The notes below the pieces were generated by a model that saw only the letters and a program-made list of their open reading frames with translations, was not told the DNA's origin and ran no database searches. The translations under genes were made by a program, and so were the position numbers. Source: an uncultured bacterium (GTDB lineage: Bacteria; Zixibacteria; MSB-5A5; SM1-73). From it: a DNA stretch of 64,000 bases. Below, one piece after another: positions 33,674 to 45,706 of the stretch. The DNA is taken from NCBI GenBank assembly GCA_965369445.1, contig CBDUQU010000001.1:1614-65613 (forward strand), read 5' to 3'. The first letter of the stretch is position 1, and every line of letters starts with the position of its first letter.

Positions 33674-33751
<78 letters not shown>

Positions 33752-33851: not shown

Positions 33852-33925
33852 CGCGCCTAGAGGGACTCGAACCCCCAACCCTCTGATCCGAAGTCAGATG
33901 CTCTATCCAATTGAGCTATAGGCGC
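33852..33925 (-). tRNA. tRNA-Arg (anticodon TCG)
   Basis: The reverse complement GCGCCTATAGCTCAATTGGATAGAGCATCTGACTTCGGATCAGAGGGTTGGGGGTTCGAGTCCCTCTAGGCGCG has a 7-bp acceptor stem, a D-arm, anticodon loop CTTCGGA and a T-arm GGGGG/TTCGAGT/CCCTC. Confidence 0.7.
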
Positions 33926-38136: not shown

Positions 38137-38841
38137 CTACCGGCAGTCCTGCAACAACGTTTCGGAAATATTATAATAGAAGCGCAGTTGGGCCAGTTTC
38201 AAGCCGTGGTTGTCATAGTCCCAAAAGTAACCCTCGAGTGCGTCGTCAAAGAGACCCACCCGTTCAACGTCGCCATCGCCATCGATGTCAACACAGAGGG
38301 TCAGGAGATACTTGGTCGCATTTATGAACTTTGGCTGCCCATGCTTGCGCTTTAACTCAAGGTACTCACCTGAGCAAACGGTGTCGCCCTCTTCATCTAC
38401 AGCGCAGAGAGTAGTGTGACTCCATCCACCGGGTGTTCCCAGAGCCCGCGCGTAGACCACATATGCAGTGACCAGATCATCATTCGGGAAAGGGTCGGGC
38501 AACTGGAATTCGGCTCTTCCATCTGTCCCATTACAATCCAGGACCTCAAAACCCTCCCCTTCAGGTGCTTCCCTCAGCATTATCTTCGTATTGCCCCACA
38601 ATTTGACGAAAATACGGTGTCCCTGACCGCAATTCATATTAGGGTTCTTGTCCTTTTTAACCCCTATGATATTCAAATTGTAGTGAGGACCATGCGGGCC
38701 GCCATGCCCTTGAGCAAAAGCGAGCTGGCTCGGCGTTTCCGCCACACCTGATAAGACGGGGAGGTTTGGACTGAAAGCAATCATCGCCAACATCCCGATG
38801 AAAGCACTCACACAGGACAAAAAGGTAAGTCTATTCTTCAT
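38137..38841 (-). CDS. secreted hypothetical protein
   Basis: Signal peptide (MKNRLTFLSCVSAFIGMLAMIAF); Gly/Asp-rich body with four Cys; no family recognised. Confidence 0.45.
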   Translation of the reverse strand: MKNRLTFLSCVSAFIGMLAMIAFSPNLPVLSGVAETPSQLAFAQGHGGPHGPHYNLNIIGVKKDKNPNMNCGQGHRIFVKLWGNTKIMLREAPEGEGFEVLDCNGTDGRAEFQLPDPFPNDDLVTAYVVYARALGTPGGWSHTTLCAVDEEGDTVCSGEYLELKRKHGQPKFINATKYLLTLCVDIDGDGDVERVGLFDDALEGYFWDYDNHGLKLAQLRFYYNISETLLQDCR

Positions 38842-39490
38842 CTCAGCATCCTCCTTTTTTCTTCAATCCTTCGATCCGCTTTGCTAATTTTTCTATTTTG
38901 TAGTCTTGCCTGCAAAGCCTGGCCTGGTGTTGCCAGAAGCCTGGCACCCAAACTCAGAGATCGACCCATTGATTCCACAACCATGCCGCCGGATAGTCCA
39001 TACTCCATTCTTGTTTCAAAGACGAAACTCACCAGCTGACTCCCAGGGCAATATTTCCCTTCCCGATTTTCACCTCCTTTGGGGGAATTCTTTGCAGAAC
39101 TGATTCAGGTGATTACGCAAGAAGTACGTCTTGCCACTTCCTTCCTGCATACAGTCTTCTTTCCTGATAGGTTTATCAGTTTTCCGGAAGAGAGCGCTAA
39201 CCGTAGTAACGCCCTGATAGCGACTTTTGATAATTGGTTATGCCTTCCCTGGCTGGAGCCATCCCCTATCGGAACTCAACAAATCCTATTGTACGCGATG
39301 AGCTTGATACTCGCCTTCCTATGGGCTCCCCTCCTATGCAAGGAACAAACCAAACCTCTTGCCCCATGTCAAGACCTTTCTCTGCTCTCGGGCTCGGGAA
39401 ACGCAGATTGTGCAAATTTTGAGCAGGAGGCTCTGTTTCGACTGACTCCAGGACATCTCTACCAAGAGCGCGTCGAAACCACAGGGCAGG

Positions 39491-42060: not shown

Positions 42061-42468
42061 TCAATACGGTTTTGCTTTGTAGCTAAAGTAGCTCACCGAT
42101 CTGGGCACCTCCTGCTGGTCTGTCCAGGTAACGGTGACCTCAATCTTGTACACCCCGGCCGGGATTGAAGCATCGGAGGAGCTGTCGTCTATCTGCGTTT
42201 GTCTGGTGAAGATGTTTTGCACAGTGTTCACCGTCTGAGTGTAAGGAATCGGACTGACCAGAGGCCAGGTCTCTATCTCCTCAAACCGATCCAGGGCGAT
42301 GGCGTCTGCCACCGTTACTTGATTTGAGTAAGAGTTACCGAACATGGAGACGACAAGCATCGGTGCCAGACCCAAAACGCCGAACCCCAGGATGAGCATT
42401 GAGATCATCACTTCCAGCAGGGTTATCCCCTTTTGGTTTCTGAGACGTCCAGATAGATTTCTTTTCAT
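42061..42468 (-). CDS. PilV-like type IV minor pilin
   Basis: Start trimmed to ATG at 42468 (AGGAGG 8 nt upstream). Prepilin N-terminus QKGITLLEVMISMLILGFGV. Confidence 0.6.
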   Translation of the reverse strand: MKRNLSGRLRNQKGITLLEVMISMLILGFGVLGLAPMLVVSMFGNSYSNQVTVADAIALDRFEEIETWPLVSPIPYTQTVNTVQNIFTRQTQIDDSSSDASIPAGVYKIEVTVTWTDQQEVPRSVSYFSYKAKPY

Positions 42469-43141
42469 CTTTTGAGCCTCCTGATTAAACTCTGATTCCA
42501 AGCGATGGAATAGCAACCTTCGTGCCCATACCCGCCCTATTTCATCTCCCCACGTGCGCTGCCCAACCTGTTGATCCTTAGTGGGTTGGCTGACCACTAA
42601 AGGCGTGGTCAAAACCCAGACACCCGGCTGGGTTTCTTTGTCACTCCGATCCTTGACCACAAGCAACAGGGTGTGGGGAATTTCCTATACGCCCCGGGAG
42701 GGTATGTTCTATTCGGGATTATGTGGAAGTTGAGCGATCCGACGTGATTCGGTCGAGACGGAGAACCATTACGAACTGGCTGCTGAACCTCCAGGAGGAG
42801 ATGAAATTCAGGGATTGAAAGACAGCCGGAAGGTTCTTCATAAAAAAGAGGATAGCCCGGTTGAGGCAAAGGAGGTGAGAACCGAAAGGTCCCTTGGCTC
42901 AGCCAGCTATCCTCAGCTAACGGCTTTTCTTCTACAATTTGTCTTATCGGCATATGGTGGTTCTCCTTAACCGGAGCGAATCCCGCAAAGAAGGAGCGTC
43001 CTAACCCGAGGCCTCTTCACAAAGGACAACCGCAACCCGTTTACGTAGGTTCAGTTTTAGCACATTCATCTCTCACCTCTAAAGATTGAACTTTTCGCGG
43101 TCGACACCTGTTCTGTGAGCCGAAAGGAGGTGAGAACCGGA

Positions 43142-43531
43142 ATGAGAAAGTTTTTCTATCTCTTGCTGGCCGTCTGTCTGCCCGTCCTTCTCCCCACCAG
43201 CCTTTACGCCTGGGACATGTGTGAGACTTCAGTGGAGACTCTCGACGTGGCCGGGGAAGTGACCTTCACTTCATCTTTCTGCGACTGCGTGGATGGGGAT
43301 GTGATCATCATCGAGCTCTGGCCGGCAGACCCGGGGGTGACGATCGACAGTGTGGCCTTCACCAAAGCAACGCCGCATTGGAAGAGCAACGAAAGCTGGG
43401 CGGAACAGGGTGGAGTTACCTTCTATGCAGTAGACGCCATACTCCACAAGGTGACGGAGAAGACGCACACAATCCACCTCTGGGTGTACCTCTCTACCGG
43501 GGAGCACATCGGGGTGAATGCCCACTTCTAA
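43142..43531 (+). CDS. small secreted Cys-containing protein, hypothetical
   Basis: ATG at 43142 with AAGGAGG upstream; signal peptide MRKFFYLLLAVCLPVLLPTSLYA; ends ...HIGVNAHF*. Confidence 0.5.
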   Translation: MRKFFYLLLAVCLPVLLPTSLYAWDMCETSVETLDVAGEVTFTSSFCDCVDGDVIIIELWPADPGVTIDSVAFTKATPHWKSNESWAEQGGVTFYAVDAILHKVTEKTHTIHLWVYLSTGEHIGVNAHF

Positions 43532-44520
43532 GGGGCTGACTCTTTCAAAACGACTCTTGTGGGCAAAGATTCAAACCGCCGGAATCGTGAGCAGCCTCAG
43601 GTTCCGGCGGTCCTTTCATGAGAAATGCGGCGGGCAAGAATGCCCGCCCCACGAATTCACACTTTGTGCAGCAGATACCGCCGTCGATGGAATGGGTCAA
43701 ACGAACTAGAGCACAGACAGAAACGTGACGGAGAGTAAAGTGAGGCGTGTGGGGCAGTCAGGCACTCCTGACCACTGCCAGAAAAATGCATAATCTTGGA
43801 ATATGCTGTTGTGGAGGCGCTGTGGCCAGAGCACTGTTTCTTTGACAAAGGCCACCACGCCAAACACCAAAACTCGAAAGGAGGTGATGCACGGCCCAGA
43901 AAGCAGATTCAGAGAAAGGAGGTGAGCAACGGAAAAAGAGGTTGAGTCAATTGCTCTAAATAAACGAAAACCTGTAAGCGCAGTCTAGGGAGGAGCCAAA
44001 GAATGAGTAAGAGAAATCTCATTGCGTTCGCCATGGTGTTTTGCCTGTTTTGTGCCGTCATCGCCCAGGTGCCCGCGCAAGATCCAATCACTTGTGGAGA
44101 ACTTCAGGCCATGGTGCAGACAGAGGTCGGGAATGAAGATGACAATCCGGACAGGTACAGGAATCATGGAAAATACGTCAGCACCGTTGCCAAGCTGGTT
44201 GACCCATACCTGGAATCAGGTGAGATTGATTCGGTGTGCGCATCGTGCATCGTGAGTCAGTTTGCCCGGGGTATACTAGTGGAGAATCAAGAGCTTTGCG
44301 AGTTCTGATCCTGCTCTTATCGTGCCCCCTGACGTCCTGGGCGCCTGCATCCAGCAACAAACACTCACCGGGCACACCAGGGTAAACGCCCACTTCTAAG
44401 GGGGCGACTCCTGGAAATGACTCTTGTTGGCAAAGATTCAAACCGCCGGAACCCTGAGCAGTCTCGGGTTCCGGCGGTCCTTTTATGAGAAATCCAGCGG
44501 GCAAGGACTTGCCCTGAGGG
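43508..44520 (+). repeat. duplicated ~145-nt 3'-end-plus-hairpin module (copy 1 at 43508-43655, copy 2 at 44375-44520)
   Basis: Both copies carry GCCCACTTCTAAGGGG...GACTCTTGT.GGCAAAGATTCAAACCGCCGGAA...TTCCGGCGGTCCTT..ATGAGAAAT.C.GCGGGCAAG. Copy 1 overlaps the stop of the gene ending at 43531. Copy 2 retains ...RVNAHF* but has no gene body. Confidence 0.6.
44003..44308 (+). CDS. small secreted Cys-containing protein, hypothetical
   Basis: GGGAGGAG upstream; signal peptide MSKRNLIAFAMVFCLFCAVIAQVPA; five Cys in the mature part. Confidence 0.5.
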   Translation: MSKRNLIAFAMVFCLFCAVIAQVPAQDPITCGELQAMVQTEVGNEDDNPDRYRNHGKYVSTVAKLVDPYLESGEIDSVCASCIVSQFARGILVENQELCEF

Positions 44521-44665
44521 GTTTAGCCCAAGGGTGCCCGCCCCACCAAGAAGGATGATCTTAGGTATGCGTAGGCGGGATTCACCCTGAAGGGCTCCCC
44601 CCCGTCCGGGGGATCTGTCTACGGCATGACCAGCCCCGCAAAATACAGCGGGCAGGATGCCCGCC

Positions 44666-45706
44666 TTACGAGGACTCGGGTTCGTCTCTCTTCAAGGCCA
44701 ATCTGGCGATTCTGTCAACCAGTTCGGGAAAATCGATGCCCAGAGCTTTGGCTGCCTTGGGCACCAGGCTGAGGGAGGTCATGCCGGGGAGCGTGTTTAC
44801 CTCCAGGCAGTAAAATCGGTGATCGTCGCCGTATCTGAAATCCACCCTGGCGTAACCTTCACATCCCAAAGCCTTGAAAGCCTTCAAGCTTATCGCCTGA
44901 ATCTCCTTCGTTTTTTCCTCAGAGATCTCAGCCGGACACACATAGCTGCTTTTTCCGTGGGTATATTTGCACTCGTAGTCATAAATCCCGTGTTCGGGGA
45001 TGATTTCCACCACCGGCAACGGCGTATCTCCCAGGACACCAACCGTCAGCTCCCGTCCCGTTATGTACCTCTCCACCAGAATACGGCTGGAGAACTCCCG
45101 GGCACACTCAAGGGCTTTCTTCAAATCCTCACTTTTCTCAACCACGGTAAGACCGACCGTGGAACCCTGGTTGTTGGGCTTGACCACGCAGGGAAAGCCG
45201 AGGCTGCTTTCGATTCTGTCTACGATGGGGGAAACATCGGAAAGATCGGGGTCGTCGACAAGAAACCACTCCGGCGTCGGTATCCCTTCCCGCTCGAATA
45301 TCTTCTTGGACATGGCCTTGTCCATAGCCAGCGCACTGGCCAGCACGCCGGATCCGGTGTAGGGTTTTCCGGTCAAATCCAAAAGCGCCTGGATGGTTCC
45401 GTCCTCCCCCTGTCCTCCATGAAGGGCCAGGAATACCACGTCCACCTCGGAGAAATCAAAGGAGTGGATGGCCTCCAGAGTTGCCTGCTTGCTTTTTCTC
45501 TCTAATTCGGCTACGTCCGGTGGTTTCTGCTTCACACCTCCGGGCAGGTATTTTCCATCGTTCGACAAGAGCTGCTGCCCCTGCGCCGCATCCAGGGCCA
45601 GCACCTGATGCCCGGCATCTTTTAAGGCCTGCACTATGGCCTCGCCGGAGGCCAAGGAAACGTCTCTTTCCGCCGAGGTTCCCCCCATCAAGACTAGTAT
45701 CTTCAA
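44666..45706 (-). CDS. ddl: D-alanine--D-alanine ligase
   Basis: MKILVLMGGTSAERDVSLASG...ALHGGQGEDGTIQALLDLTGKPYTGSG matches the ATP-grasp Ddl signature blocks. Confidence 0.92.
   Translation of the reverse strand: MKILVLMGGTSAERDVSLASGEAIVQALKDAGHQVLALDAAQGQQLLSNDGKYLPGGVKQKPPDVAELERKSKQATLEAIHSFDFSEVDVVFLALHGGQGEDGTIQALLDLTGKPYTGSGVLASALAMDKAMSKKIFEREGIPTPEWFLVDDPDLSDVSPIVDRIESSLGFPCVVKPNNQGSTVGLTVVEKSEDLKKALECAREFSSRILVERYITGRELTVGVLGDTPLPVVEIIPEHGIYDYECKYTHGKSSYVCPAEISEEKTKEIQAISLKAFKALGCEGYARVDFRYGDDHRFYCLEVNTLPGMTSLSLVPKAAKALGIDFPELVDRIARLALKRDEPESS

Follow-up and report, generated by a model that had tools for sequence, protein, structure and literature searches.

A stretch of 64,000 nucleotides (nt) from an uncultured Zixibacteria bacterium (contig CBDUQU010000001.1; hereinafter the window) contains a gap between a minus-strand minor-pilin cluster, whose last gene ends near 42468, and the minus-strand ddl gene (44666-45706). 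The gap holds two small secreted-protein genes, free-standing sequences resembling a ribosome-binding site (RBS) and a repeated gene tail. What are these repeated pieces: remnants of gene starts and gene ends left by recombination, as an earlier note on this DNA had supposed, or working parts of the locus? Our comparison set comprised about 40 related Candidatus Zixiibacteriota loci (designated by L-numbers). On balance, we lean slightly towards the reading that this is a lineage-specific small-secreted-protein locus composed of leader–gene–terminator units, in which the leaders bear boxes that would bind the 30S ribosomal subunit without initiating translation. The leaders are the interesting part of the locus; the repeated gene tail is routine.

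RBS-like boxes and the leaders of three secreted-protein genes

Gene 1 (43142-43531, plus strand) encodes a secreted (signal-peptide-type) protein of 129 amino acids with a predicted Ig-like beta-sandwich. Gene 2 (44003-44308, plus strand) encodes a secreted (signal-peptide-type) helical protein of 101 amino acids, whose mature part has four cysteines that are invariant across 36 homologues; and gene 3 (38137-38841, minus strand) encodes a conserved secreted protein of 234 amino acids. The first two are the signal-peptide open reading frames (ORFs) singled out in the earlier note; both lie exactly where it had placed them and are conserved in relatives. Homology searches indicate that they are real, conserved, lineage-specific families of Candidatus Zixiibacteriota, which recur as a pair. 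The predicted structures of both are confident yet generic, that of gene 2 being a small helical bundle with no informative structural neighbor, and neither Pfam nor NCBIfam has a family for gene 1, 2 or 3. Because a gene-3 homologue directly follows gene 2 in L045 and L046, the three genes look like one functional set, which in the window flanks the pilin cluster.

The leaders of these genes are marked by five boxes, which are the only matches of at least 11 nt in the 64-kb window to AGAAAGGAGGTGATC, the complement of the canonical 3' tail of the 16S rRNA. The sequence AAAGGAGGTGA occurs five times in the 64 kb as against 0.06 expected, a count reached by 0 of 100 shuffles, and a plus-strand segment of 1.06 kb accounts for four of the five copies. 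Box 1 (42868-42884, plus strand; AAAGGAGGTGAGAACCG) is a copy of the gene-1 RBS region, partly paired inside a hairpin that we term Element A, with no start codon behind it. Box 2 (43122-43139, plus strand; GAAAGGAGGTGAGAACCG) is the true RBS of gene 1, with the ATG 8 nt after GGAGGTGA. Boxes 3 (43876-43888, plus strand; GAAAGGAGGTGAT) and 4 (43913-43925, plus strand; AGAAAGGAGGTGA) precede gene 2, and box 5 (39070-39080, minus strand; AAAGGAGGTGA), which is conserved in L006, precedes gene 3. Boxes 1, 3, 4 and 5 match AGAAAGGAGGTGATC for 11-13 nt and stand, respectively, about 270, 125, 87 and 230 nt upstream of the starts. Four of the five boxes have within 15 nt no ATG, GTG or TTG from which an ORF of 60 amino acids or more would run; the ATG found in box 3 overlaps the box itself and is missing from L016, L010 and L018. 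A leader peptide behind box 1 was considered and rejected, as every clade lacks a start codon at a suitable distance.

The earlier note had seen the recurrence of one motif both at 42868, without an ORF, and ahead of gene 1, and the copies of AAAGGAGGTGAGAACCG at 42868-42884 and 43123-43139 bear this out; the related boxes it had placed at 43873 and 43912 were found at 43877 and 43915, an offset of 2-4 nt. Its interpretation of them as orphan gene-start fragments did not survive the comparison, as every related locus has each of them as a leader element at a conserved position. Relative to the gene-2 ATG, boxes 3 and 4 are found at -125 and -87 in the window and in L010, L016, L018, L042, L043, L045 and L046, i.e., in every gene-2 locus with readable upstream sequence, including those with 63-68% protein identity. 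Boxes 1 and 2 are bound to each other in a further way: in 22 out of 22 units with both boxes they are identical for 5-9 nt past the 10-nt core, and the variants of this extension shift jointly in the two (GAACCGA in most units, TAACCAG in L007, L029 and L014, and GAACCAAAA in L024). Going by this positional conservation, genes 1, 2 and 3 have the RBS-like boxes as fixed components of their leaders, and the boxes are not gene fragments.

The gene-2 leader (43842-44002, plus strand) includes a -35-like TTGACA (43842-43847), boxes 3 and 4, and the true RBS, GGGAGGAG (43988-43995), located 7 nt ahead of the ATG. It is less structured than its own shuffles (z = +1.56), and promoter-like hexamers stand at a fixed spacing upstream of boxes 3 and 5. 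We propose that the boxes would base-pair with the 3' tail of the 16S rRNA, would not initiate translation there and, in this reading, would be STAB-SD-like or standby-type elements by which the leader binds 30S subunits, a mechanism that presupposes UCACCUCCUUUC in the 16S 3' tail of the host. Exposed, non-initiating 30S sites would fit because the constant part of the box is a complement of the anti-Shine–Dalgarno (anti-SD) sequence of up to 13 nt and the gene-2 leader is unstructured.

Element A and the gene-1 leader

Element A (42840-42914, given here without a strand) comprises an A-run (42842-42847) followed by a 67-nt hairpin (42848-42914) with the stems GAGGATAGC/GCTATCCTC; read on the minus strand, it is a hairpin followed by UUUUUU. 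Its minimum free energy is -35.1 kcal/mol on the plus and -33.7 kcal/mol on the minus strand, with z of about -5.1 on both. A covariance model built from 19 copies returned 26 plus-strand matches, one for each gene-1 unit (one of these, a second unit, lacks the gene-1 body), and the rest of the 218 kb of the window and loci gave no match. Its nucleotide identity is 78-91% where that of the gene-1 coding sequence is 67-74%. In L042 (4082-4385) a second Element A, near-identical to the window copy, is intact in a unit with a decayed box 2 (AAGAAGGGGTGAGAACCG) and no gene-1 body; hence, Element A may be kept up independently of the gene. A genome-wide repeat of the repetitive extragenic palindrome or miniature inverted-repeat transposable element kind (REP/MITE) was rejected for both Element A and the GCGGGCA..TGCCCGC palindrome of this locus, neither of which occurs elsewhere in the 64-kb window.

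On a MAFFT alignment 84.0% of the Element A cells are paired, against 83.2% in the shuffle control (a value reached by 58 of 500) and 30-47% in the slid-partner controls. Folded strand by strand, the means are equal, with 13 units folding better on the plus and 8 on the minus strand. The minus-strand version is a GC-rich stem-loop with an adjoining U-tract, the U-run being kept in most units; at 67 nt the stem-loop is beyond the limits of the terminator scan.

Downstream of Element A, the alignment of 18 leaders delineates conserved blocks at 42943-42974 (plus strand), namely CTTATCGGCA (42943-42952) and the anti-SD-like GGTGGTTCTCCTTAACCGG (42956-42974). These are followed by an anti-box at 43063-43080 (plus strand; CATTCATCTCTCACCTCT), complementary to box 2 and the start codon, in place of which other clades have a T-run. 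Duplexes of the anti-box have energies of -22.5 kcal/mol (with box 2) and -18.5 kcal/mol (with box 1), and in the minimum-energy fold of 43060-43150 the RBS is sequestered (z = -2.3). In the window clade, this arrangement suggests a switch of decoy, anti-SD segment and RBS. A universal plus-strand anti-box was rejected, since the best box-2 partners vary by clade and none is common to all, as was a long-range helix CTTATCGGC/GCCGAAAGGA proposed by RNAalifold, which lacks covariation and whose 3' partner is missing in distant loci. An ungapped block at 43079-43112 (plus strand; CTAAAGATTGAACTTTTCGCGGTCGACACCTG) is kept in 18 of 18 leaders, including L045; promoter, operator and 5' untranslated region (UTR) are candidate assignments for it. 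A mini-hairpin within it (AGGT-CGAY-ACCT) is weak and inconsistent, with all four pairs present in 9 of 16 sequences. A sigma-70 promoter scan found none in the leaders, and the hand-picked candidates are weak on both strands.

In gene 1, then, the box copy in Element A would be functionally coupled to the true RBS, and two forms of coupling may be envisaged: the box in Element A could act as a decoy for the anti-SD segment, or Element A on the minus strand could be an antisense RNA with its own terminator. A hairpin that bears a copy of the downstream RBS, co-varies with it and is better conserved than the protein is a testable candidate for post-transcriptional control.

The repeated gene tail and the architecture of the locus

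The duplicated module of about 145 nt described in the earlier note is real and slightly larger than thought, and both of its hairpins are present in each copy. Copy 1 (43504-43655, plus strand) comprises the last 9 codons of gene 1, a terminator-type hairpin (43575-43611) and a palindrome (43630-43647). Copy 2 (44372-44549, plus strand) comprises a relic of the gene-1 3' end (..VNAHF, with the stop codon at 44397-44399), the hairpin (44442-44478) and a palindrome into which an insertion is nested (44497-44541). The copies align in ungapped blocks of 46 nt (80%) and 91 nt (90%), or by BLAST with about 86% identity over 135 nt (E=1e-38), with an insertion of about 25 nt in the loop of the second hairpin of copy 2. 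That the second copy is detached from any gene body was likewise correct, as an in-frame TGA at 44328 leaves none attached to its ..VNAHF. Hairpin 1 (ACCGCCGGAA..TTCCGGCGGT) has stem energies of -26.7 and -30.6 kcal/mol in the two copies and z-scores against shuffles of -6.0 (43575-43611) and -7.6 (44442-44478); taken together with the short GCGGGCA..TGCCCGC palindromes, the range against shuffled controls is -3.3 to -7.6. In relatives hairpin 1 is followed by a U-run (TTTTCTT or TTTTTTT; L005, L008, L009). Thus constituted, the module is the last codons of gene 1, its terminator-type hairpin and then a local palindrome shared with the 3' side of ddl.

Across the lineages, the second module is part of a wider variation in the number of units. 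The simplest arrangement, in L005, L011, L012, L019 and L020, runs from the pilins through gene 1 and its module to ddl, without gene 2. In the window, L010 and L018, gene 1 and its module are followed by gene 2 and then by the relic of the gene-1 tail with the second module. L016, a metagenome-assembled genome (MAG) with 85% identity, has gene 1a, gene 2, the relic and gene 1b, the gene-1 paralogue being 66% identical, with three modules. L042, from a complete genome (CP070839.1), has, between gene 1 and gene 2, an extra pseudo-unit relative to the window arrangement, in which Element A is intact, the leader has decayed and the gene-1 body is missing. In L043 and L044 the similarity of the sole gene 1 covers residues 1-112 and is lost beyond them, gene 2 comes next, and GEHIGVNAHF with its stop codon and the hairpin are found behind gene 2. 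Finally, in L045 and L046 a gene-1-like gene, gene 2 and gene 3 stand in a row in a non-pilin context. In all, the relic lies behind gene 2 in seven loci (the window, L010, L016, L018, L041, L042 and L043); no locus has more than two gene-1 copies, and the unit number ranges by lineage from one unit up to two units plus gene 2.

These arrangements point to a history of the locus. What survives in the detached module is the 3' end of a second gene-1 copy, along with its terminator-type hairpin. The gene-2 cassette (leader and gene) appears to occupy this second copy at about codon 112, because gene 1 of L043 matches only residues 1-112 with the tail found behind gene 2, and the relic behind gene 2 in L041 corresponds to residues 112-129, i.e., it begins at residue 112. 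Tandem duplication and deletion would then have altered the number of units. The spacer between the first module and the gene-2 leader (43656-43841, plus strand) is homologous to the end of the second, decayed unit present in L042: in a local alignment window positions 43657-43881 match L042 4655-4879, the end of that pseudo-unit, and therefore about 800 nt have been lost there in the window. Contigs of 99%-identical strains break at the same junction, with two independent assemblies stopping at 43708 and a third contig starting at 43654, an overlap of 55 nt (L001, L002, L004). Because L042 carries about 800 nt extra at that very place, structural variants may coexist among strains at 43654-43708; the breaks are compatible with this and do not prove it. 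The relic probably serves as the 3' UTR and terminator of gene 2 and seems to have been kept because gene 2 draws its terminator from it. The relic and the repeated module amount to ordinary gene-family turnover, for which no special mechanism is needed.

Several smaller features attend the module. The stem sequence of hairpin 1 downstream of gene 1 is kept without covariation out to homologues of 62% protein identity (L005-L009), a degree of sequence-level conservation that is unusual for a simple terminator. The palindrome, typically GCGGGCA, a short loop and TGCCCGC, often followed by CCTAC, is present at 43630-43647, with a larger loop at 44497-44541, and in a third copy at 44648-44664. 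The last lies directly behind ddl in a terminator-like hairpin (44647-44665, minus strand) with a T-rich tail, and no further copy exists outside this locus in the window. Its copy number in the intergenic space differs among lineages (in the relatives, e.g., L042 3840-4050, and L016 3330-3345 and 4175-4350), and a nested palindrome, GGGCAAGGACTTGCCC, is found at 44499-44514 inside that of module copy 2. Between module 2 and ddl lies a 24-nt inverted partial copy (44577-44600, 83% complementary to 43499-43522) of the gene-1 3' end, the counterpart of which is tandemly duplicated in L010; it may be due to chance or be a further relic.

As for the wider setting, the genes of the pilin cluster give N_methyl and PilX_N matches in profile searches, and in L005 and L042 the surroundings of the locus (about 6 kb) comprise pilins, a HAD hydrolase, ddl, DedA/VTT, IspF, IspD, QueA and QueH. 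The longest ORF of the pilin-like gene at 42061-42666 (minus strand) opens at a TTG that lies 75 codons ahead of its N_methyl motif; its true start is probably the ATG near 42468 (MKRNLSG...), and hence an intergenic stretch of about 670 nt lies ahead of gene 1. The link to pili suggested in the earlier note is one of adjacency alone, as the gene-1 unit is also found in two non-pilin contexts (L007 and L045). Nearly all related loci are labelled Candidatus Zixiibacteriota, and a few come from bins labelled Ignavibacteria (L011, L012, L013) or Bathyarchaeia (L017). These MAGs contain gene-1 homologues, and L011-L013 also Element A; their labels are probably the result of mis-binning or outdated taxonomy. 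The sole Rfam matches in the window at the gathering score are two tRNA genes, 33677-33751 and 33852-33925, both on the minus strand.

Competing explanations, parallels and significance

What, then, do the leaders do? Read on the minus strand, Element A could be the terminator hairpin of a divergent small RNA (sRNA) of about 200 nt, the 3' arm of which (CGGUUCUCACCUCCUUU) would pair over 15-21 nt with the gene-1 RBS and block translation. We consider this unlikely overall and at the same time a serious rival, because the minus-strand hairpin runs directly into 6-8 U in most of the 23 distinct units, and an exact complement of box 2, the gene-1 RBS, arises by construction, boxes 1 and 2 co-varying. 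Wobble cells are also commoner on the minus strand (57 as against 34), four loci (L006, L025, L027, L032) fold 9-14 kcal/mol better on it, and Element A is intact in the L042 pseudo-unit despite the decay of box 2 and the gene body there. However, the minus strand has yielded no convincing promoter, the plus strand gives by far the better fold in L013, L014 and L035, the complementary segment is mostly paired within the hairpin, and boxes 3, 4 and 5, which share the core without hairpin or U-run, would need a separate explanation. On the opposite strand the same identity of boxes 1 and 2 over 15-21 nt, together with their covariation, could instead reflect a three-part switch in a long gene-1 leader, with box 1 as an anti-anti-SD element rivalling box 2 for the anti-SD segment, and the fold of Element A or a bound factor setting access to the RBS. 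The ability of the window-clade anti-box to pair with box 2 (-22.5 kcal/mol) and box 1 (-18.5) would favor this, as would the hairpin and U-run ahead of the CTAAAGA block in several clades (strong and attenuator-like in L027 and L030) and the occurrence of G.U in the pairs with the box-1 AAGG on the plus strand only. We rate such a switch as quite unlikely: no anti-SD segment is conserved or co-varies over all clades, no conserved promoter stands upstream of the A-run, no ligand or factor can be proposed, and Rfam offers no match. A search of 42600-44700 with E up to 10 yielded nothing relevant, only a spurious match to PVT1_7, and no riboswitch, leader or sRNA family reaches or approaches the gathering score for the elements of this locus.

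The third possibility is the one advanced in the earlier note, namely that surface or pilus-associated proteins are being diversified by continuing gene conversion or the shuffling of cassettes, with the boxes and the module being recombination debris or substrates. It was right in that the structure of the locus does differ among lineages, the cross-lineage comparison revealing gene 1 only, gene 1 with gene 2 and relic, an extra unit, or a truncated gene 1; moreover, the contigs of 99%-identical strains break at 43654/43708, and the flanks common to genes 1 and 2 could support recombination. The conversion itself fares worse. The relic is old, being retained in several lineages at only 75-86% identity, a pattern not expected under continuing conversion. 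An array of silent variant cassettes is lacking, and in L005 and L042 the genes called within about 6 kb include no recombinase, a screen that did not extend to the whole 64-kb window. What the flanks have in common amounts to only some 20 nt at the boxes plus a segment of about 150 nt that is 86-90% identical. In every locus the boxes and Element A are preserved and occupy the same position, and the pilin context is not universal. Shuffling of this kind is thus very unlikely.

The reading that we prefer, i.e., leader–gene–terminator units with non-initiating 30S-binding boxes, also has points that weigh against it. The 16S 3' tail was taken as the canonical one, which may not be that of the host. 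The extension shared by boxes 1 and 2 past the SD core is left unexplained by 30S binding, and the anti-box is restricted to the window clade. The strand tests on Element A are ambiguous, with equal mean energies and 34 G.U cells on the plus against 57 on the minus strand, along with 33 mismatches. The tail of hairpin 1 in the window reads CCTTTCAT, with no good U-tract (the copies read CCTTTCAT or CCTTTTAT), and because of this poor U-tract the terminator scan left the hairpin unflagged. The body of the L042 pseudo-unit has no detected similarity to gene 1, and therefore it is L041 and L043 that support the proposed nesting of gene 2 in a gene-1 copy; a candidate gene-1b remnant at 43722-43734 was rejected, its 13-nt match scoring no better than shuffles.

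The closest parallel to the 30S-binding reading is the STAB-SD, an SD-like mRNA stabilizer in the 5' UTR of Bacillus thuringiensis cry3Aa (Agaisse & Lereclus 1996, as cited in PMC12970973). That source places the STAB-SD at about -125 of cry3Aa or cry3Ca and relates the proposal that 30S binding blocks the access of ribonucleases (PMC12970973); another has ribosomes at a strong SD blocking RNase J1 (PMC5737220). As in cry3, where the sequence is GAAAGGAGG, an SD-type sequence stands here far upstream of the start and not for initiation, at -125 and -87 of gene 2 as compared to about -125. By their complementarity to the 16S tail far from the start, and the lack of any use in initiation, the boxes qualify at the level of sequence as STAB-SD candidates. 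Unlike the Bacillus case, a different phylum is involved, two boxes stand in tandem before gene 2, and one box lies within a conserved hairpin and co-varies with a real RBS.

Leaders that sequester the RBS through anti-SD and anti-anti-SD segments are familiar from riboswitch expression platforms and RNA thermometers. The gene-1 leader resembles them in that the pyrimidine-rich segment of the window clade pairs with the SD and start codon and an upstream SD copy could compete for it; it differs in having no known aptamer, no Rfam match and no anti-SD segment kept across clades. Bacteria also possess sRNAs that are divergent from an adjacent target and complementary to a short part of its 5' UTR, such as IstR-1/tisB, OhsC/shoB and OrzO/zorO. 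The candidate RNA here would likewise lie immediately upstream of gene 1, with 15-21 nt of complementarity to the initiation region and a terminator-like 3' end, whereas its target would be a secreted beta-sandwich protein of 129 amino acids and not a small hydrophobic toxin, and the minus-strand RNA is itself a candidate. Accordingly, a type I toxin–antitoxin system was rejected, as gene 1 with its 129 amino acids and signal peptide contrasts with hydrophobic toxins of under about 60 amino acids. The duplicated gene tail and terminator (86-90% identity) and the palindrome in three copies, with related copies in relatives, are akin to relic gene ends and local extragenic palindromes, except that the relic here is retained over several lineages, probably as the terminator of gene 2. 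An integron, shufflon or pilin-type antigenic variation was rejected for want of a silent-cassette pool and of a recombinase among the L005 and L042 neighbors. Genes 1 and 2 were also rejected as type IV pilus-associated proteins: both lack the N_methyl (prepilin) match present in neighboring genes, and the units also occur without pilin genes (L007, L045).

The conserved leader elements may be a new regulatory motif. A bolder form of this proposal is that three Zixibacteria-specific secreted-protein genes share a new cis-regulatory RNA system. This would be composed of non-initiating super-SD boxes of 11-13 nt and a gene-1 hairpin co-evolving with the true RBS, either as an RBS decoy or as an opposite-strand antisense RNA that mimics the 16S tail, and its motif would lie outside Rfam and possibly act on both strands; this we regard as tentative, possible though doubtful. 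To our knowledge, the phylum has no cultured members and no described regulatory RNAs, and our literature search found no paper tying Zixibacteria to an RNA motif. Against this backdrop, near-perfect anti-SD complements lie at set positions before three co-occurring secreted-protein genes. If post-transcriptional control by these leaders is borne out, the logic of the STAB-SD or of RBS mimicry would reach outside the Firmicutes, and a co-regulated set of secreted proteins of unassigned function would be defined.

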